Shown here: in pieces, positions 3,242 through 53,239 of the stretch | Numbering within the stretch: the stretch's first letter is position 1 | Layout: the number at the start of each line of letters is the position of its first letter | Source of the DNA: Deltaproteobacteria bacterium | GTDB taxonomy: Bacteria; Myxococcota; XYA12-FULL-58-9 | Assembly: GCA_041309305.1 (NCBI GenBank) | Contig: JBFYZW010000235.1 | Coordinates: forward strand, 1 to 63,792 | Length of the DNA: 63,792 nucleotides | Direction: 5' to 3' | Program-made: the position numbers and the translations under genes | Notes under the pieces: generated by a model | Told to the model about the DNA's origin: nothing | Seen by the model: only the letters and a program-made list of their open reading frames with translations | Databases searched by the model: none

Positions 3242-4594
3242 ATGGGAGAGGTCATCATGAGCGCAACCAGCAGGGTCTTCGTGAGCGCAGCTGTCGCTTG
3301 TTTCTTCCTTTCGTGCGTGAGCAGCAACTCGTCACAGACCTGCCGCAACGCCGACGAGTGTGACCCGGGCTACACCTGCCGCGATGGCTACTGTCTCGAG
3401 CTCTGCACGGCGGATCGTGACTGCGCCAAGGTCGAGCAGTGCGTGAACGGGCTGTGCGAACGGGTGGCGAACCCCGAATGTGCCGCGGACTCCGACTGCT
3501 CCGCGGGCGGCAATTGCGTCGCGCCCGAGGGCACCTGCCTCGCCGGCGCCTGCGGGTACACCGCAGTCACCAACGGCACGGCGTGCTCCGCGGGCAGCGT
3601 CGCCGGGTGGTGCTGGAGCGGCGTGTGCGTGCCGCGCGGTTGTGGTGACGGCGTGGTGGAAAACGGCGAGGCCTGCGACGACCGGAATACCGCCTCTGGC
3701 GACGGCTGCCTCTCCGACTGCACCGCGGTCGAGGCCGGCTACTCGTGCTTCGACGGCTTGCCGTGCCGGTTGACCTGCCGCTACGATGGCACCTGTCCGG
3801 GTCGCATCGTCACCATCCTGCTGGCCCTCGACGGGCTGACGAGCTCGCTCATCCGCGAGGCCCTGGTCGAGCAGGCCGTCGACTGGGTGACGCCCACTCC
3901 CGACCCGAACGTGTTGTACGTGCGTGACGATCACACCGCCGGCGAGTCGACCGGGGACCTGATCATGGTCAACGATATCCTCGCCGGCTTGACCGCCGTC
4001 GGTGTGCAGATCACCGCCATGGACGAGCCCCCCACCGGGCTGACGACCGCCAATGTCAGTGGCTTCGACGTGGTCTGGTTCGCCAATCCGGGGTACCCCA
4101 TCGACGACGCGCAGACCTTGGCGACCCTGCGCGAGTTCGCCCTCGCCGGCGGTGGGGTCGTGTTGCAGGGCGACGACATGGCCTGGACCGCTGCCAACGG
4201 CGAGCCGAGCTGGGGCACGGTCAACTGCGGCGGCCCCACCCACCCCTACCACGCCGATTTGACGGGCTTGAGCTGCGTGCACAACGGCCACGCCTACTGC
4301 AACAAGGAGACCGACAACATCTCCAACTCCTACGGTGGCGACGCCTATGTGGTCACCATCGAGACCGGCAGCACGCACCCGGTCATCGCCGGCATCGGGG
4401 GACAGTCCGGCAACTACGTCAACGACATCGACATCGCTGCAGTTCGGACCGGGTTGGATGCTTCCGTCCGCGTCCTGGCAACCGCCACCATCTCCGATGC
4501 CGACTTCTCCACACCGAGCGCTTCCTGCCCGACGGTCAACCGGGCCATCCCGGTCATCGTCGCGCAGGATCTGAACGCGAGCTGGTCTCCCTGA
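3242..4594 (+). CDS. Lipoprotein with an N-terminal Cys-rich region including one Myxococcus-type cysteine-rich repeat, plus a C-terminal alpha/beta domain of unknown function
   Basis: 450 aa. Lipobox FFLSC. Contains CGDGVVENGEACDDRNTASGDGCLSDC, which matches the CGDGxxxxGExCDDGNxxxGDGCSxxC repeat pattern (TIGR02232-like). An alternative start lies at 3257. Confidence 0.65.
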   Translation: MGEVIMSATSRVFVSAAVACFFLSCVSSNSSQTCRNADECDPGYTCRDGYCLELCTADRDCAKVEQCVNGLCERVANPECAADSDCSAGGNCVAPEGTCLAGACGYTAVTNGTACSAGSVAGWCWSGVCVPRGCGDGVVENGEACDDRNTASGDGCLSDCTAVEAGYSCFDGLPCRLTCRYDGTCPGRIVTILLALDGLTSSLIREALVEQAVDWVTPTPDPNVLYVRDDHTAGESTGDLIMVNDILAGLTAVGVQITAMDEPPTGLTTANVSGFDVVWFANPGYPIDDAQTLATLREFALAGGGVVLQGDDMAWTAANGEPSWGTVNCGGPTHPYHADLTGLSCVHNGHAYCNKETDNISNSYGGDAYVVTIETGSTHPVIAGIGGQSGNYVNDIDIAAVRTGLDASVRVLATATISDADFSTPSASCPTVNRAIPVIVAQDLNASWSP

Positions 4595-8587: not shown

Positions 8588-8786
8588 CGCAACGACCTGC
8601 AGTTGAGAATGCGAACGACCCTACCTCGCACGCGCCCCCGCCGGACGATCAACGAGCGTGCAGCCTATTGCTCCTCCGCGTTCGTATACAAGTCGCGCCG
8701 AGAAGACAACCACGTTCGAGCCTGACCATGAGTAGGACAAACCCGGAGACAGTACCGGGAGCCGAGTAGTTGCGGGATGCCGGGTC

Positions 8787-8870
8787 GTGCATCGTCTTGG
8801 CTGGCGAGAGCTGGCAAAGCGCACCTTTGAGATAGACGTGATGCCGTGTCCGTCGTTTGGTCACAGCCCG
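8787..8870 (+). pseudogene. IS91-family (Y2 transposase) C-terminal fragment
   Basis: RLGWRELAKRTFEIDVMPCPSFGH resembles the conserved SWAxLLxRVFxIDVLxCPxCGG motif near the C-terminus of IS91-like transposases. Only about 28 codons remain, and the zinc-ribbon Cys residues are degraded. It abuts R1 copy A. Confidence 0.35.
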
Positions 8871-8954
8871 GTGGTGGTGTTGGGCCAGGTTGCGAGCGGG
8901 GCGGGCACGCGATCTACCGCGGTGGTCGGGTCAGCTGAGCCTTCGATGGAGCGT

Positions 8955-9052
8955 CGTGCCTTGATGGGTGCAGTGACGGCGGGGGCAAGCGATGAGCGGC
9001 GAGGTCGGGCGGGGTTCGTCATTGGGGGAGGGGGTTTGTGCCGCTCATGCAC
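8955..9052 (+). repeat. R1 repeat, copy A (3' part only; left part divergent)
   Basis: cgtgccttgatgg..ggggcaagcgatgagcggcgaggtcgggcggggttcgtcattgggggagggggtttgtgccgctcatgcac. It aligns to copies B, C, D and E. Confidence 0.8.
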
Positions 9053-10416: not shown

Positions 10417-10577
10417 CCCGAGGAGAAGGCGGTCGATGAAGCGCGGCCTCTTTCGTGTCTCGAGCATCGCGTCGTGCCTCGGCTGGGCCGCGGTCGGCGG
10501 TACCGCCCGCGGTGTCACCGGTCGCGCCACCTGGAGACAGGTGTGGATGTGATGAGTTGGTTCGTGGAGCCGTGGGC

Positions 10578-10674
10578 CCTAAACGGACGGTCACGATTCC
10601 CGATCACCAAAGAGCGGCCTCGCCCGAGGAAGAAACGCAAACGGGGTTTGCGCGAATCGCGCCCCCCCGTTTAG
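10578..10674 (+). repeat. REP-like intergenic element, copy 1 (extended form), ending in a hairpin
   Basis: ccctaaacggacggtcacgattcccgatcaccaaagagcggcctcgcccgaggaagaaacgcAAACGGGGtttGCGCGaatCGCGCcCCCCCGTTTag. It is nearly identical to 31605..31702. Confidence 0.8.
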
Positions 10675-16119: not shown

Positions 16120-16338
16120 CGCGGGTGTGCTCGACTCGGTTGATGCGCGGGCGTTATGCGCCGACCGCGACGCGCACGGCCGAAGGTGTGTCTCACATTG
16201 CTACACGCTCGAGTCGCAATGTGAGACACGAGGCAATCGTCGTTCGTGGTCCAGCGTCCCGTCCTGGCGAACCAATTGGTGGTCGACCTCTTGGCCATCG
16301 TTTGTGCCGGAGATTGCCGCGGTGAGGAGGAGGTTGGT

Positions 16339-16592
16339 TCAACTGTCGTTGCCGTTTGGGGTCGGATAGTCGCCGTTGAGCGAGGCCGAGGCCGAACGAT
16401 TAGAGCCGGCGAAAGTCAGGCAGGCGAAGCTCTGTCCATCCGGCGAGAATCCGTGTTTCGGCCAGAGCAGCCGGTGTTGCCAAGAGGTTCCGGTCGTGCG
16501 TTGACGGTCGTCGCGCTGGAGGGGGCAAGCGATGAGCGGCGAGGTCGGGCGGGGCTCGTCATCGGGGGAGGGGGTTTGTGCCGCCTGTGCAC
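16339..16592 (+). repeat. R1 repeat, copy B (full length)
   Basis: It aligns with 28972..29189 over about 220 nt and with 44626..44780. The minus-strand tail ends at TGA (16339-16341). Confidence 0.85.
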
Positions 16593-17148: not shown

Positions 17149-17196
17149 ACTGGAGACATCATAGAGGGGTGCCGGTCGGCGAGAAGATCCTGACAG
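17149..17196 (+). repeat. 48-nt repeat identical (1 mismatch) to the sequence upstream of the IS110 fragment at 27673; a solo copy
   Basis: actggagacatcatagaggggtgccggtcGgcgagaagatcctgacag compared with 27673..27720, which has A at the capitalised position. Confidence 0.8.
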
Positions 17197-27672: not shown

Positions 27673-27720
27673 ACTGGAGACATCATAGAGGGGTGCCGGT
27701 CAGCGAGAAGATCCTGACAG
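27673..27720 (+). repeat. 48-nt repeat at the 5' boundary of the IS110-type fragment
   Basis: Same sequence as 17149..17196, lying 67 nt upstream of the transposase-fragment ATG. Confidence 0.8.
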
Positions 27721-28647: not shown

Positions 28648-28905
28648 ATGGTGCCCGCCATCATGGCCTCTCTGCACGGGCCAATGGCCGCCTCGTTGCT
28701 GGCTGGACCTGTCATGACAGGAGTAGGTGGTGTCTTGCTCGCTACGGGAGTGGCGCTGTTGGCCACCACGCGGAGTGGCAAAGATGACGCTGACGGGGGC
28801 GCCCGCGTGATGTCGCACGTGTATGGAGGTCTGTTGGCGGGCGGCATTGGATTCGGAGTGGCCTCGGTTGGCGCTGCCATTTGGAGCACGCAATGCTTCG
28901 ACTGA
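28648..28905 (+). CDS. Small membrane protein (two predicted TM helices, Gly-rich)
   Basis: 85 aa from the internal ATG: MVPAIMASLHGPMAASLLAGPVMTGVGGVLLATGVALLATT...GGLLAGGIGFGVASVGAAIW. Confidence 0.45.
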   Translation: MVPAIMASLHGPMAASLLAGPVMTGVGGVLLATGVALLATTRSGKDDADGGARVMSHVYGGLLAGGIGFGVASVGAAIWSTQCFD

Positions 28906-28971
28906 TCGGGCCGCCTGTTGCGGACCGGAGTCGATTCGCCATCGGTCGCGCAGTCCCCCGTCGGGGTGGGC

Positions 28972-29189
28972 TCAATTGCCGTTGCCGTTGAGCGAAACCG
29001 AGGCCGAATGATTGGAGCCGGCGAAGGTCAGGCCGGCGAAGCTCTGTCCGTCCGGTGAGAATCCGTGGTTCGGCCAGAGCAGCCGGTGTTGCAACCGGGG
29101 TTGCCAGTCGCGCGTTGATGGTCGTCGCGCTGGAGGGGGCAAGCGATGAGCGGGGAGGTCGGGCGGGATTCGTCATCGGGGGAGGGGGG
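28972..29189 (+). repeat. R1 repeat, copy C (3' extremity truncated)
   Basis: It aligns with copy B. The minus-strand tail ends at TGA (28972-28974). It lacks the final tttgtgccgctcatgcac. Confidence 0.85.
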
Positions 29190-29471: not shown

Positions 29472-31610
29472 ATGACCGCTCGCTGGCTCGTCCTCATCTC
29501 ACTCGCGGGTTGTGCCCACGCGCCGGCGGCAGGTCCGCCGATCCTGCCGCTGCGCACCTTGCACTTGTACGAGACCGGGGTCGGCTACTTCGAGCGCCAC
29601 GGCCCGGTGGCGGGGGGCGAGACCACGCTGCCGGTGCCGGCCGGGCACCTCGACGACGCGCTGAAGACCCTGGTGGTCATCGACCGCCAGGGGGGCGTCA
29701 CGGTCAACGGCTTCGAGTTTGCGGCGAGCCTCTCCAACGGGCTGGCCCGGGCGCTGGCCGGGTTGCCCACCGGCGAGGAGCCGGTCACCCACCTCGAGTT
29801 GCTCGCCGGCCTGGTCGGCGCCGACCTGAGCGTTGTCACGCACCGCGAGAGCGTGCGCGGCCGGCTGATCGCCGTGCAGCCCGGTCGTCATACCGCGCGC
29901 GAGTGCGATCCGGAGAACGAAGACTGTACCGGGTCCGCTCCCGACTCGCCGACGGCGGTCGCCGAGGCGCAGCTGCTCCTGCTCGGTGACGACGGGACGA
30001 TCCGCACCCTGCCCCTTGCTGAGCTCGACAGCGTTCGGCCGCTCGATCCGACGCTGGTCAATCGCCTCGCCGCCGCGCTCGACGTCCTCTCGCCGCGCGA
30101 TGCGCAGACCCAGCGAGCGGTGCGTCTGCTCGCATCGCACCGCGGCGAGGTGACGCTGGGCTACATCGCCGAGACACCGGTGTGGCGGACCACCTACCGC
30201 CTGGTCGCCGAGCGGGCGCAGCCGCGCGGCGAGCTGCAGTCGTGGGCGCTGTTGCACAACGACACCGACGAGGACTGGCGGGCGGTGCAGGTGCGGCTGG
30301 TCAACGGCCAGCCCGACTCCTTCCTCTTTCCGCTCGCTGCGCCGCGCTACGCTCGCCGGCCGCTGGTGACGCCGGAGGTGGCGTTGTCCACCGTGCCGCA
30401 GCTGATCGACACCACGGCCGATCAGTTCTGGGGCGACCTCGACGAGGACGGCGGACTGATCGGCAGCGCCAGCGGCTCGAGCTACGGGATCGGCGGCCTG
30501 GGATTGCGCGGCTCCGGCGCCGGGGGCGCGGGCTACGGCTCGTTCACCAGCAGCGGTGGGGCCAGCGGCGGCGACGCCGCCAGCGGGTTGCTCCGCGTCG
30601 GCGATCTCGCTGCGGTCAACGAGGCGCGCGGTGAAGAGCAGGGCGTGCTGTTCAGCTTCACCCTGGCCGAGCCGGTCGACCTGCGCGCCCACGGCTCGGC
30701 CCTGGTTCCCTTCGTGCATCAGTCGATCGACGCCGAGTTGGTTACCCTGATGAGCGCCGACCAGAGCGAGGCCCGCTCGGCGGCGTTGTTCACCAACACC
30801 TCGGCCTACACGTTGCCCGCCGGGCCGATCGCCTGTTTCGCCGAGGGCGTCTTCGCCGGTGAGTCGACGCTCGAGCGCATGAAGCCGGGCGAGCGGGCCT
30901 TGATCACCTTCGGCGCCGATCTCGACGTGGCGGTGACGCTGACGACCCAGAGCGATCGCCGCGAGGTCAAACGCCTGACCCTGGGTCCGACCGGTATCGA
31001 GGAGCACGCCCTGCGTCACCGCGAGTTGGTGGTCGAGGTCAGCAATCGCAGCGCCCAACCTCGGCGGGTGTATCTGCCCCTGCCGGTGATCACCAACGCA
31101 CAGGTGGAGGGCGCCGACCGGCTCGACTATCACCCGAGCGAGGCCACGCCGTTCGCGGTGATCGCCGTCGGGCCGGCGACCACCGCTCGCCGGTCCTTGA
31201 TCGTGCGCGAGGGGCTGTCGCGCGCGATCTCGCTCACCCGGGTCACGGGCGCGGCGTTCGAGGCCTGGCTCGCCGAGGCGACGCTGCCGGAGAGCGACCG
31301 CCAGGTGCTGCGCGCGGCCTTACCGGCTCAGGCCCGCTGCGACGGCCTCACGAGCAAGGAGCGAGAGCGGCAGCACAAGGCCGCCGGGCTCGAGCAACAG
31401 CTGGAGCGCCTGCAGCGCTATCTGGAGAAGGCCGGCGGCGGTGAGGAGCCGGTGGCCGGCGCCGGCGAGCTGGTCAATCGCATCCTCGCGCTCGAGACGC
31501 AGCTCGCCGCCTCCGCCGAGGCGCAGACCGCCCTCGCCGAGCAGCAGGCGGCCTGCGTCGAGGCGGTGGCCGAGAAGCTGGCGCCGTTGAAGCCGGCCAG
31601 GCAGCCCTAA
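29472..31610 (+). CDS. DUF4140/DUF4139-like lipoprotein (TIGR02231-like) with a C-terminal coiled coil
   Basis: 712 aa from MTARWLVLISLAGC (lipobox). The N-terminal LHLYETGVGYFERHG...TLPVPAGHLDDALKTL resembles DUF4140. The C-terminus is helical (QQLERLQRYLEKAGG). Confidence 0.6.
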   Translation: MTARWLVLISLAGCAHAPAAGPPILPLRTLHLYETGVGYFERHGPVAGGETTLPVPAGHLDDALKTLVVIDRQGGVTVNGFEFAASLSNGLARALAGLPTGEEPVTHLELLAGLVGADLSVVTHRESVRGRLIAVQPGRHTARECDPENEDCTGSAPDSPTAVAEAQLLLLGDDGTIRTLPLAELDSVRPLDPTLVNRLAAALDVLSPRDAQTQRAVRLLASHRGEVTLGYIAETPVWRTTYRLVAERAQPRGELQSWALLHNDTDEDWRAVQVRLVNGQPDSFLFPLAAPRYARRPLVTPEVALSTVPQLIDTTADQFWGDLDEDGGLIGSASGSSYGIGGLGLRGSGAGGAGYGSFTSSGGASGGDAASGLLRVGDLAAVNEARGEEQGVLFSFTLAEPVDLRAHGSALVPFVHQSIDAELVTLMSADQSEARSAALFTNTSAYTLPAGPIACFAEGVFAGESTLERMKPGERALITFGADLDVAVTLTTQSDRREVKRLTLGPTGIEEHALRHRELVVEVSNRSAQPRRVYLPLPVITNAQVEGADRLDYHPSEATPFAVIAVGPATTARRSLIVREGLSRAISLTRVTGAAFEAWLAEATLPESDRQVLRAALPAQARCDGLTSKERERQHKAAGLEQQLERLQRYLEKAGGGEEPVAGAGELVNRILALETQLAASAEAQTALAEQQAACVEAVAEKLAPLKPARQP

Positions 31611-31702
31611 ACGGACGGTCACGATTCCCGATCACCAAAGAGCGGCCTCGCCCGAGGAAGAACCGCAAACGGGGCGTGGGCGAATCGCGCACCCCCGTTC
31701 AG
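31605..31702 (+). repeat. REP-like intergenic element, copy 2 (extended form)
   Basis: It begins at the last codons of the upstream gene (ccc taa) and ends in AAACGGGGcgtgGGCGaatCGCGCaCCCCCGTTc. Confidence 0.8.
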
Positions 31703-38736: not shown

Positions 38737-38880
38737 ATGGGCTTCGTCATCGACGCTTGGTTGGCGTTGGTGGTCGCAGTGGCCGGCTGGATGAACAAGG
38801 GGCCATTGGAGATCATCGAGTACCTCCGCGCAGAGAACCGGGTGCTGCGTGAGCAGGTGCGGCGCACCGGGTGGTGGTGG
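38737..38880 (+). pseudogene. N-terminal fragment of an rve/DDE-type transposase
   Basis: WMNKGPLEIIEYLRAENRVLREQV resembles the common N-terminal WLNRxQQxxIEYLxEENRVLxEQL helix of integrase-core transposases. It is truncated after about 45 codons, where a 39-nt R1 piece starts. Confidence 0.4.
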
Positions 38881-38883
38881 CAC

Positions 38884-38922
38884 AGCCGGCGAAGGTCAGG
38901 CCTGGGAAGCTCTGTCCATCCG
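38884..38922 (+). repeat. R1 repeat, copy D, internal 39-nt piece
   Basis: agccggcgaaggtcaggcctgggaagctctgtccatccg matches the DGQSF.GLTFAG part of copies B and C. Confidence 0.7.
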
Positions 38923-38925
38923 TCG

Positions 38926-39291
38926 TTACGGCCGATTCAATCCGGCGAAACCAGGCGGGACGCCTTGCGAATTCCGAGGAGTCCAGTCTCGCGGTGCATA
39001 GAGGCCGCCAACCCAGTAGCTGCCACACTTTCTGGCCGCTTCTTCAAAGGTACCGAATTGGTGGACAGTCCGTCCTCCCCGCTTGTGGTGCCCCGGTTGA
39101 GGAATCACGCTCCATTTGGTTGGGTCAAGACCAAGGTCAGAGGTTGTCGTGTTCAACGGAAAACTCGAGACCCTTCTCTCGAGAGCTGCCCAATCGCTGG
39201 TTCGGCGTTCGATACTGCAAACCAGACCTGGTTTGGCTACCGCGTCCTTTTCGAAGAGATATGCGGTACCGGCAATTCTTTCGAGAGGCAT
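38926..39291 (-). CDS. Small hypothetical protein (121 aa) on a low-GC cassette between the two R1-D pieces
   Basis: ATG at 39291 has AAAGGAGG 7 nt upstream. Sampled lines count about 52-62% GC. Sequence: MPLERIAGTAYLFEKDAVAKPGLVCSIERRTSDWAALERR...GTFEEAARKCGSYWVGGLYAPRDW. No recognised domain. Confidence 0.6.
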   Translation of the reverse strand: MPLERIAGTAYLFEKDAVAKPGLVCSIERRTSDWAALERRVSSFPLNTTTSDLGLDPTKWSVIPQPGHHKRGGRTVHQFGTFEEAARKCGSYWVGGLYAPRDWTPRNSQGVPPGFAGLNRP

Positions 39292-39427
39292 GGTGTGCCT
39301 CCTTTCATCCGCTGTAGACCATCAAATTGTCGACCGTCGTCACCTATGGTTGCGTGCCGATGGCGATTGTTCAATGGGCCGCGGTGTCGTGGCGAGGACG
39401 CTCGCTTTCATTCGGTGATACGCCACG

Positions 39428-39474
39428 AGGGCGGGGTTCGTCATCGGGGGAGGGGTTTTGCTCTCCCTGTGCAC
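39428..39474 (+). repeat. R1 repeat, copy D, 3' piece
   Basis: gagggcggggttcgtcatcgggggaggggttttgctctccctgtgcac. Confidence 0.7.
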
Positions 39475-39693
39475 TCGCCCCCCGCAACGTCGGCCGGGTG
39501 GGTCTTCCGGCCTCGACGAACGAATCCGACGCCCTCGGCTGCAGTTTGCATCTTGCCGCAGCCCGTCTATATTCCCCGGCGGCACCGGGTGACACTGGTA
39601 CGCACCCGTGCCGAGCCACACTCGGTAGTACCCTGCCCCGGCAGTGTCTCTGACGTGTAGCGAAAAACGAGTGGCCCCCCACGAGGAGAGACG

Positions 39694-42600
39694 ATGCGTA
39701 ACTGCATCCCTGCCCGCCTGACGTCGTTCTGTCTGCCTTTCCTCTTCTTCCATTGTGGCCCTGCGGATCCGTCGCTGGGGCTGATCGCAACCGCCACCGC
39801 AGAAGCCCTCGGCGTCGAGCACACCGTCTGCCCGGTCGGCTCTCCCCAGGGGCCGTGCGACTTCGCCACGCCCACCGCCTGCGCCATCGGCGCCGGGGTC
39901 ACCAACGGCGATATCTGCCTGGTTCGGGGCGGCACCTACCACGAGCCCATCACCTTCCAGGCAACGCCGTTCATCGGCCGCACCGAGCTCGTCTTCCGCT
40001 GCGCCCCTGGTTTCGCCTGTCTCATCGACGGCCGCGGCCTGCTCGCCAGCGGAGTCGACGGCTATGATCACTGGACCATCGAAGGGTTCGAGATCACCGG
40101 CACCACCGGCGACGCCGTCACCGGTTACCGGGGCGTGCGTGCGGTGCGCGACTGCTACATCCATGACGTGGGCGGCCGCGGCATCGCCAAGCTCACCGGC
40201 ACCAGCACCGCCACTGGCGTCGCCGAGCGCAACCGCATCGAGAGAACCTGGTCGTCGGGCATCCAGTGTCTCGCCCCGCCGTCCGGTCCGGTCGTGATTC
40301 GGAACAACCTGCTCGTCGCCACCGGCCTCAAGGGCGGCAACGCCGTCAACTGCACCTCGGCCAGCGCATCTCTGTCGGTGGTCCACAACACCCTCGACCT
40401 CGCCGACCGCACGCCCCCCTTCGCCGACCCGGCGGCTTACGGCATTCTCAGCGCGAGCGCGCGCGCCAATGTCGTCGTCGGCGGTAACACCTCGATCTCG
40501 GTGAGCGGCGATTATCGCGAGAACCTGGTCTCCGGCTGGGCCGCCGCTGCCTACGCCGGCGCGGGCGGCGACGGCGGGGGCAACACCACTGGTGCTCCCT
40601 CGTTCGTGGACACCGAGGACTACCATCTGCTCGCCAGCTCCCCGGCCGTCGACGCGGCCGTCACCTCGACCGAGACCGAGGACTTCGAGCGCTCGCCGCG
40701 CACGGGTACTCCCGACAAGGGCGCCTTCGAGTACGCCCCGGGCTACGACCCGGAGACGCCGGACTGGCCGATCCGCGAGACCGTCGACGAGCTTTCGCTC
40801 TATGCCTCGCCCGCGCTCACCCTGCTCCCGGGCGTGGGCGGCGGGCCGGCGGTCGCCTACCTCGACTCGAGCGCGAGTCGGCTCGTGTTCGCCCGGCGTC
40901 TGACGAACGGCACCTGGCGCGACGAGGCGGTGGCTGCGCCCGTAGGCACCGTGAGCTTCGCCGCCAACGGTCCCAACATGCGACACGTGGCGCTCGCCAT
41001 AGAGCCCACCACCGGCCTGCCCGCGGTCGCCTGGGTCGACCAGGCGGCCGGTCTCTTGCGGCTCCACTACGCCCGCCGCGTGGGCGAAGGCTGCGGCACG
41101 GGTTGCGCCTCGCCGCAGTGGAGCGGCTGCAACGCCACCCCGTTGAAGACCTTTGCCAACACCGATCGCGTCTCTTTCGACCTGGCCATGAGCCCGCTCA
41201 CCGGCCGGCCCGGCATCGTCCTCTGGCGCCAACGCACCAACGGCTGCGGCACCAACGTCCCTGCTTACCACGTGCTCTACCTGTCGCAGCAGCCGAACGG
41301 CACCTGGACCGAGACCGAGCTCGCCGCGACCTCTCCGGCCTGCACCAACATGATCCCGCCGGCCGTGGCGCTCTCCTTCTCGCCAGAAAACGACGCGGCG
41401 GAGCTCGCCTTCACCCGCACCACCGGCAACGCCAACAACTTCGATCCCCATTACTCCCTCGGCGAGCTCGTCTTCGCCACCAACGCGTCGGGGAGCTTCG
41501 TCACCACGGTGCTCGCGCTCGGCGACGGCAAGACCACCTACGGCGGCACCCGGGCTTACCTGGATCTCGCCCACCGCGCCAACGGCGACCTCGGCATCGC
41601 CTTCCACGGCAAGTTCGGCCCCGGGACCGGCAAGATCGGCGTCGGCTTCATCGAGCGTCTCGGCGGAGTCTGGGCGGCGGACGCCTCCGTGCCGGCCTGG
41701 TCGCTCGCCGGCGCCACCATCCTCACCGTGCACGGCGTCGCGCTCGCCTACGACGCGGCCAACCTGCCGACCCTCGGCTTCGCCTCCGAGTACACCCTGC
41801 GCCTGGCGCGCTTCGACGGCGACCGCTGGGACGTGCGCTACGTCGACGCGCAGCGCGCCAACGGTTTCTGGCCGACCCTGGCCCTCCTGCCCGGCGGCGG
41901 CGTCGTCCTCGCGCACCAGCAGGAGGCGCCGCATCACGACGTCAAGGTCCAGGCGACCCAGGATCCCGGCGGCGCAGATCCGGCCTCGGTCGAGCCCTCG
42001 AGCTGCGATCTCTGCCCCACCGATCCGGCCAAGACCGCACCGGGTGTCTGTGGCTGCGGCACCCCCGACACCGACAGCGACAACGACGGCACCCCCAACT
42101 GCAACGATGGCTGCCCCGGCGACCCCGCCAAAGTCGCGGCAGGGACCTGCGGCTGTGGCATCTCGGATGCGGACAGCGACGGCGACGCGGTCAAAGACTG
42201 CAACGAGGACTGCGACCTCGACCCCGCCAAGACCGATCCGGGTCTCTGCGGCTGCGGCGTCGCCGACACGGACAGCGACAGCGACGGCGCGCCCGACTGC
42301 AACGACGACTGCCCGCTCGACCCGCTCAAGGTCGCGCCCGGCTTGTGCGGCTGTGGCGTGCCCGAGGGGTCGAGCTGCGGCTGCACCGCCGGCTCACCCG
42401 ACGGTGACAGCGACGGCACGCCGGACTGCGCCGACGACTGCCCGGCGCACGCCATCAAGATCCTCCCCGGTATCTGTGGCTGCGCCGTGGCCGACACCGA
42501 CACGGACAACGACAGCACCCCGGACTGCAACGATCTCTGCCCGACCAACAACCCCAAGACCTCGCCCGGCGTCTGCGGCTGCGCCGAGCTCGACTGGGAT

Positions 42601-44463: not shown

Positions 44464-44625
44464 GGCACCTCGGGCGCAGACGCAAACGGGCCAGAGCTCG
44501 ACGGGTGGGTGTATGTAGCACCAGGCGACGGCGCACGCTGCCGCGTGGTCGGGTGATTCGATGTTGGTCTTGGGGGTGGTGCACCCGGCCGCCGAGGCGG
44601 CCGCACCTGTCGTGCTCGCGGTCCT

Positions 44626-44780
44626 CCGGTGAGAATCCGTGGTTCGGCCCAAGCAGCCGGTGTTGCAACCGGGGTTGCCGGTCGTGCGTTGATGGTCGTC
44701 GCGCTGGAGGGGGCAAGCGATGAGCGGCGCGGTCGGGCGGGGTTCGCCATCGGGGGAGGGGGTTTGTGCCGCTCATCTAC
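44626..44780 (+). repeat. R1 repeat, copy E (5' truncated; best-preserved stem GATGAGCGGC / GCCGCTCATC)
   Basis: ccggtgagaatccgtggttcggcccaagcagccggtgttgcaaccggggttgccggtcgtgcgttgatggtcgtcgcgctggagggggcaagcgatgagcggcgcggtcgggcggggttcgccatcgggggagggggtttgtgccgctcatctac. Confidence 0.85.
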
Positions 44781-53033: not shown

Positions 53034-53193
53034 GGGCGGGTGATGCGCGCCCCGCGCCCGCTCCTCCGCACGGCTCGCCGGCCGCTGAGCTGGGCCGCCG
53101 CCGCCGCCGCCGCGACGGCCTTCGCCCTCGCGGTGGTCGAACCCGGCTCGTCGGGCCTGGGCGGCGGCGTGGCCACGGGCGGCTTCGCGCGCG

Positions 53194-53239
53194 GGAAAAC
53201 CGAAAACGGGGTGTACGCGAATCGCGCACCCCCGTTTAG
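53194..53239 (+). repeat. REP-like hairpin, copy 3 (short form)
   Basis: gggaaaaccgaAAACGGGGtgtaCGCGaatCGCGcaCCCCCGTTTag. Confidence 0.75.

Follow-up and report, generated by a model that had tools for sequence, protein, structure and literature searches.

Copy D of the R1 repeat is best explained as a decayed relic of an IS91-type transposon end with foreign DNA nested inside it, and not as a cassette system; we give this reading a probability of roughly 0.62. The copy was found in a 5.9-Mb MAG (773 contigs, 71.0% GC, 82% complete, 3% contamination). The window, that is, the whole stretch of 63,792 nt that was analysed, is contig C235 of this genome. Five copies of R1 occur in the window, all in one orientation and at the edges of accessory blocks: copies B (16336-16592) and C (28942-29187) are intact, copies A (8953-9039) and E (44585-44767) are partial, and copy D is interrupted. 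An earlier reading, made from the sequence alone, had proposed that the centre of copy D was replaced by a low-GC cassette and that R1 may be a site or vehicle for cassette insertion. The replacement itself was confirmed: both R1 pieces were recovered by BLAST, are collinear, and enclose a compositionally foreign centre. The proposed cassette exchange was not upheld, as the inserted DNA (hereafter the filler) is unique, no integrase lies nearby, its open reading frame (ORF121) has no homologues, and the locus is eroded.

Identity and spread of the R1 repeat

The suspicion that R1 belongs to a mobile element proved correct. A Pfam transposase sweep of the genome located ORFs with an IS91-type Y2_Tnp domain on two contigs, C663 and C332. 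The first (C663:1477-3222, at least 582 aa) and the second (C332 2198-3850) each encode PF14319 (Zn_Tnp_IS91) and PF04986 (Y2_Tnp) and are 67% identical to one another. Both genes are cut by contig ends, and the C663 ORF leaves its contig exactly inside an R1 match. About 180 relatives with both domains were found, of about 500 aa each; no database protein is more than 56% identical to the C663 and C332 transposases.

The C663 protein, used as a tblastn query, matched R1 on C611, C155, C15, C238, C159, C734, C713, C361, and C279. Its residues 498-582 are 69-84% identical in the full-span R1 copies (C611, C155, C15) and up to 100% identical in shorter pieces. The long form of R1 at C15:2975-3580, reverse-complemented, reads ...VSWRDLAKRVFEVDVLCCPRCGQSPMLVLGVVH...LPFWFG*; its translation in that direction gives ...VSWRDLAKRVFEVDVLCCPRCGQSPMLVLGVVHNPTERQRLASEGVLNSSKAGRLGGRSFRARSPPSGPVQLRLPFWFG*, and a three-way alignment puts this at 71% identity with the C-terminus of the C663 protein. 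Within the window, relics of the transposase C-terminus were found on the + strand in or beside copy A (8781-8894), copy B (16301-16368, reading ...LVQLSLPFGVG*), copy C (28901-29010, reading ESIRHRSRSPPSGWAQLPLPL...), and copy E (44540-44630). The + strand order of R1 is as follows: the last ~100 transposase codons, the stop (reference position ~240), ~225 nt of untranslated sequence, and the right terminus, ...GGGGGAGGGGGTTTGTGCCGCCTATGCAC. Judged by this organization, R1 is the right (oriIS) end of a rolling-circle insertion sequence in the IS91 family.

The ends of the element were compared with this assignment in mind. Described IS91 elements have terIS and oriIS ends without inverted repeats, produce no target duplication, insert with a target tetranucleotide beside oriIS, and contain subterminal palindromes (PMC13181058). 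The R1 terminus (...CCTATGCAC) is sharp, the left boundary of R1 begins CTGGAGTGGAG..., and the full-length left end of the element reads ...CCCCGGCCC..GTGTCGCAATTCGCGACAC; no inverted repeat common to these three was found. Among the few R1 copies with both boundaries no consistent target duplication was seen, and one copy (C329:17408-17727) has TCGGCC on both sides. In 8 of 17 cases CGG lies within the first four flank bases beside the terminus, which is weak evidence in a genome of 71% GC. A 7-bp palindrome (GTGTCGC-AATTC-GCGACAC) is present at the C663 left end and degraded in C332. At the ori end of R1, an imperfect CGATGA..TCATCG pairing was seen by eye only, and the RNAalifold consensus is weak.

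Across the genome, R1 comprises ~60 BLAST pieces at ~45 loci on ~20 contigs. A core of ~290 nt is followed by an optional module of ~180 nt and then a distal module of ~75 nt; on the minus strand the 5' boundary is sharp, and copies have a distal boundary in common. Individual pieces end at many different points, with short forms, long forms, and internal deletions all represented, such that the survivors are mainly end fragments of ~300-540 nt plus smaller relics. That so many copies are partial would be accounted for by transposition ending prematurely, together with deletions and other insertions. More than 12 copies, both long and short and with different flanks, agree in their left boundary to within ±4 nt, and a distal boundary common to differing flanks suggests that a truncated unit was mobilised repeatedly. 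IS91 transposes by way of a single-stranded circular intermediate (PMC13181058), and the single orientation of the window copies would fit strand-biased integration of such an intermediate, if the mechanism of the family applies here.

R1 is lineage-specific: it was not found in 40 relatives, and its 20-nt core is absent from a one-genome-per-species collection of ~185,000 species. Copies are often located at contig ends, and the R1-bearing contigs (267 kb in total) average 68.3% GC as compared with 71.0% for the genome. No flank duplicated together with R1 was found within the genome. Three other identities for R1 were considered and rejected. An RNA gene or riboswitch was discarded because R1 matched no Rfam family, the RNAalifold consensus is weak, and a transposase relic was found. 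That R1 might serve a gene family as its 5' leader or promoter was discarded because the adjoining genes are not related to one another and show no consistent orientation. A small minus-strand gene in the R1 tail was discarded because changes occur at all codon positions, one copy has a 5-nt indel, and the + strand encodes the transposase end.

Other repeats and mobile-element pieces were observed alongside R1. A second repeat family, a ~97-nt unit (CTAAACGGACGG...CCCCCGTTTAG) with inverted termini, occurs in the window at 10576-10674, 31604-31702, and 53179-53239, and returned well over 100 BLAST matches on more than 100 contigs, mostly at 75-97% identity, with some copies in tandem. This family resembles a MITE, and one of its copies adjoins a scrap of the R1 distal boundary at 10541-10581. 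A 48-nt direct repeat (98% identity) is present at 17149-17196 and 27673-27720, with a third copy at C750:9266-9312. Among the R1-rich contigs, pieces of an IS110-type DEDD transposase were located at C238:42-275 and C687:8218-9162, and a PemK/MazF-like toxin ORF was recognized by eye at C238:6019-6387.

Anatomy and reconstructed history of copy D

The element's own orientation at copy D is the window + strand. Two R1 pieces were identified there by BLAST and local alignment. The left piece (38884-38925, +) corresponds to reference positions 204->163, in the untranslated stretch directly 3' of the expected position of the IS91-type stop; the right piece (39429-39474, +) corresponds to positions 61->16 and is the extreme right terminus on the oriIS side (...GGGGGAGGGGTTTTGCTCTCCCTGTGCAC), after which the flank begins at 39475 with TCGC.... 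Between them lies the 503-nt filler (38926-39428), in place of reference positions 62-162. Searched with the intact R1 copies against the 5.9-Mb genome, the left piece (38884-38922/25) was recovered at E values of 4.6e-9 or 1.3e-4 and the right piece (39429-39455/74) at 2.9e-5 or 4e-11. These matches are significant, and the two pieces are not chance similarities. Local alignment to copy B gave 41/46 identical positions for 39474-39429 and 37/42 for 38925-38884; the head of copy D is identical to the C15 copy at 44/46. The pieces are collinear on one strand and spaced by 503 nt as compared with 101 nt in the reference copy. The enlarged gap reported earlier is therefore real, but its length by alignment is 503 nt and not 507 bp. 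Weak similarity to R1 was seen by eye to extend into the filler at both edges; local alignment did not support it.

Only 88 nt of R1 are left in copy D. All IS91-like coding parts, the distal boundary, and ~100 nt near the terminus have been lost, the last including one arm of the imperfect subterminal palindrome. To the left of the remaining R1 sequence lies the N-terminal stump of an rve-type DDE transposase (HTH_32/HTH_21/rve_3; 38737-38871, +), identified by protein homology as 82% identical to a 103-aa JGI protein and 56-63% identical to proteins of ~359 aa with PF13565/PF13276/PF13683. The stump, 45 codons long, was correctly recognized in the sequence-only reading, but its homology ends (at ...REQVRRTG) 12 nt short of the R1 piece (gap 38872-38883), not ~3 nt. 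Its IS family is not that of R1. The sole rve_3 match in the genome is at C238:8337-8516, and further rve-type N-terminus stumps were observed on the R1-rich contigs C324 and C153.

No continuation of the rve gene was found in any frame past 39474, so the locus is not explained by R1 having simply inserted there. Copy D needs at least two separate rearrangements: the replacement of its centre, and the joining of reference position 204 to rve codon 45. No counterpart of the flanking 815-aa gene was found at E ≤ 1e-10 in 20 relatives, and thus no empty version of the site. Beyond the right piece, a gene for a 1589-aa adhesin starts at 39694. The spacer contains a single sigma-70-like match (TTTGCA-17-TATATT at 39545-39573, +), which lies ~120 nt upstream of this gene and is plausible as its candidate promoter.

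The history that we favour can be reconstructed as follows. An IS91-family element would have multiplied in this myxobacterial lineage, with R1 ends persisting as fragments. Copy D would be one such relic, reduced to its 46-nt terminus plus 42 nt of untranslated sequence, after the ~100 nt between them, with one palindrome arm, had been swapped for ~0.5 kb of foreign DNA. The likeliest route would be a nested insertion of mobile DNA followed by deletions, or else illegitimate recombination; we infer both the order and the type of these events. A further deletion would have brought the surviving R1 piece up against codon 45 of the unrelated rve-type transposase. The outcome would be inert debris lying between two genes for accessory surface proteins, with ORF121 standing outside any cassette-exchange mechanism.

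Alternatively, the two pieces may never have belonged to one copy: a 46-nt solo ori end and a 42-nt internal scrap, unrelated to each other, would flank older foreign DNA. The solo end could stem from an aborted rolling-circle transfer, for example. Solo ori ends of 64-101 nt, and internal scraps starting at reference positions 145-181, do occur elsewhere in the genome, and the closest relative of the head of copy D (the C15 copy) is not that of the tail (copy B). However, pieces this short cannot make a subfamily difference count, and with both on the same strand, in the right order, and 503 nt apart, a single ancestral copy is the simplest account. We consider independent origins unlikely.

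The filler and its reading frame

At 56.9% GC, the filler (38923-39428) stands well below the genome as a whole (71.0%), in agreement with the low GC content described earlier. Such a composition is rare: of 22,469 genome windows of 500 nt, only 25 (0.11%) do not exceed 57% GC, and of those that do not exceed 58.5% many are grouped on a few contigs. The filler is compositionally foreign DNA. Its ratio of observed to expected TA is 0.48, the genome's 0.43. The genome contains no second copy of the filler, including at the other R1 loci, and no match was found in plasmids or phages. The earlier reading had suggested searching other R1 copies and other genomes for the same cassette; no other R1 locus carries the filler, and ORF121 was not found in the other genomes scanned. 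The filler as a structured RNA was ruled out, with no Rfam match at E ≤ 1 and unremarkable folding (z-scores of +0.47 and -1.14). An 8-bp inverted repeat, TCGTGGCG (39387-39394) and CGCCACGA (39421-39428) with a 26-nt loop, is present as described at the filler edge beside the terminus piece, and the same site scores as a terminator-like match on the + strand.

Could the filler have been brought to its present position by the assembler? A chimeric path through short R1 repeats, joining sequence from another organism or locus, might be suspected in so fragmented and incomplete a MAG, given that R1 often ends contigs and that the GC content of the filler is atypical; it is nevertheless very improbable, considering that TA depletion in the filler is near that of the genome, that both junctions fall in R1 sequence that differs from all other copies (~88-90% identical to copy B; head to C15, up to 44/46) and not in shared exact repeats, and that R1 is lineage-specific.

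ORF121 (39291->38926, minus strand, 121 aa) occupies most of the filler, and its TAA stop adjoins the left R1 piece. Both the 121-codon frame and the Shine-Dalgarno-like AAAGGAGG ahead of its ATG are present as first reported; the motif lies at 39298-39305 (-), as read from the sequence, with a 6-nt spacer (CACACC). No relative of the encoded protein was found. Sequence and profile searches of Pfam, NCBIfam, PADLOC, PHROGs, and PDB gave nothing below E 0.05. A word-indexed search of 5.8 billion clustered proteins gave no match, and an exhaustive HMMER search of 1.84 billion (1.84e9) protein representatives gave zero. Scans of genome and metagenome contig collections, confirmed by tblastn, yielded none, and an exact 23-mer from the ORF start was absent from metagenome contigs. 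Tblastn against phages and plasmids, and a six-frame search of 21 other genomes of its class, were likewise negative. ORF121 is not a conserved core gene.

Several properties bear on whether ORF121 is a gene. Its GC content at the three codon positions (0.59/0.56/0.55) carries no codon-position signal, as compared with GC3 values of 0.88-0.91 in neighbouring genes. In simulated 506-nt sequences carrying the filler's own dinucleotide bias (TA 0.48), an ORF of at least 121 aa arose in 13%, or in 5.6% if only ATG starts were counted; the length of ORF121 by itself is not significant. Because TA is depleted, two frames on the + strand remain open over its length as well. The ORF contains a 7-bp hairpin followed by TTTT, and its single-sequence AF2 model has no confident fold (pLDDT 37). 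The source gene caller skipped ORF121 and annotated instead a 307-aa ORF on the + strand (38737-39660). This chimeric frame joins the transposase stump to an R1 piece and to ORF121 read in antisense, and is almost certainly not a gene. On the other side of the balance, the composition of the predicted protein is natural-looking, and AAAGGAGG with an ATG at canonical spacing has a chance of ~2e-3 per ATG by a rough estimate. This start signal, being unlikely by chance, is a point against reading copy D as debris, since ORF121 may be a real gene. That it is, or recently was, one is possible, though we hold it only tentatively; in the favoured reading, ORF121 would be open by chance, or else be a fragment or an orphan gene left stranded from a donor, and is presumably non-functional.

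Cassette exchange and comparison with known systems

A systematic search of the genome for R1 pieces that are collinear but separated by additional DNA returned only copy D and one locus on C734. There, segments 120-333 and 3255-3456 correspond to reference positions 553-341 and 232-31, collinear and with 2.9 kb between them; the three ORFs in this interval have no Pfam matches. These collinear parts could hint at recurrent loading, which would count against the debris reading of copy D. The two C734 pieces are large, however, and on contigs of this kind R1 relics recur every ~2-7 kb in one orientation; the locus is therefore equally likely to represent two separate relics as one filled R1 copy.

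No tyrosine recombinase is linked to R1: PF00589 was found only on C60, C24, and C653, all without R1. Because no IntI-type recombinase is nearby and R1 is a transposon end, the integron cassette/attC model does not apply. One-ended transposition captures DNA beyond terIS, and not between the transposase stop and the ori terminus. Given that the filler lies between stop and terminus, with no linked recombinase and no duplicated flank, R1-based cassette exchange is not supported.

A different kind of carriage would make copy D the decayed carrier of an orphan gene, ORF121, on an R1 fragment mobilised in trans as a cargo-bearing mini-IS91. The recurrence of one left boundary to within ±4 nt implies repeated mobilisation of a truncated unit, ORF121 has a canonical start on compositionally foreign DNA, and the C734 locus may be a second loaded copy. 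In IS91, short ends are enough for mobilisation with TnpA in trans, and termination failure (1-14%) carries adjacent DNA by one-ended transposition (PMC13181058). Against this, copy D has lost most of the element along with the left boundary of R1 (reference ~555) and is now immobile; the filler is single-copy, its ORF lacks relatives, and it removes part of the ori-proximal region including one subterminal palindrome arm; and the C734 pieces may equally be separate relics. We regard this carriage as improbable. The stronger proposal, in which R1 mini-elements form an active cargo system that is moved by the full-length transposase, built the surface-protein blocks (by such moves or through one-ended transposition), and delivered ORF121, is more doubtful still. 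It would place the cargo between an internal pseudo-terIS and oriIS, with each block ending in an R1 copy of the same orientation.

Under the preferred reading, copy D itself is ordinary, a decayed transposon relic that points to no new cassette mechanism. The identity of R1 reveals more, namely an uncharacterised IS91-family element whose ~45 end fragments are scattered among genes for accessory surface proteins in an uncultured myxobacterium. This element may have shuffled accessory blocks. If one-ended transposition built them, they would provide an environmental, non-resistance case of ISCR-like gene shuffling.

Of the known systems, integron cassettes and their attC sites offer a superficial likeness only, in that a repeat flanks an ORF at copy D. 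No integrase is near, no attC-like structure or array of small cassettes is present, and the R1 repeats are 5-12 kb apart around large genes. MITE-like or truncated insertion sequences are a closer match, as R1 is short, gene-less, and multi-copy, has a common boundary, and has been eroded by deletions and insertions. It differs from them in having come from a rolling-circle element, and for that reason lacks inverted termini, and in containing an antisense relic of a transposase C-terminus. The closest comparison is with IS91, IS801, IS1294, and the ISCR elements. The known GTTC/CTTG flank of IS91 is absent, and roughly half of the R1 copies have a CGG/CCGG-rich flank instead; database proteins reach at most 56% identity to the transposase, the DNA is lineage-specific, no assembled copy of the element is complete, and copy D is a non-functional scrap of it. 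The likeness to this family is as follows: the transposase combines Zn_Tnp_IS91 with the HUH domain Y2_Tnp, the dissimilar ends lack terminal inverted repeats, with no consistent target duplication seen, untranslated DNA extends from the gene to a sharp ori-side terminus, a subterminal palindrome lies at the left end of the C663 copy, and many ori-end fragments lie in one orientation.
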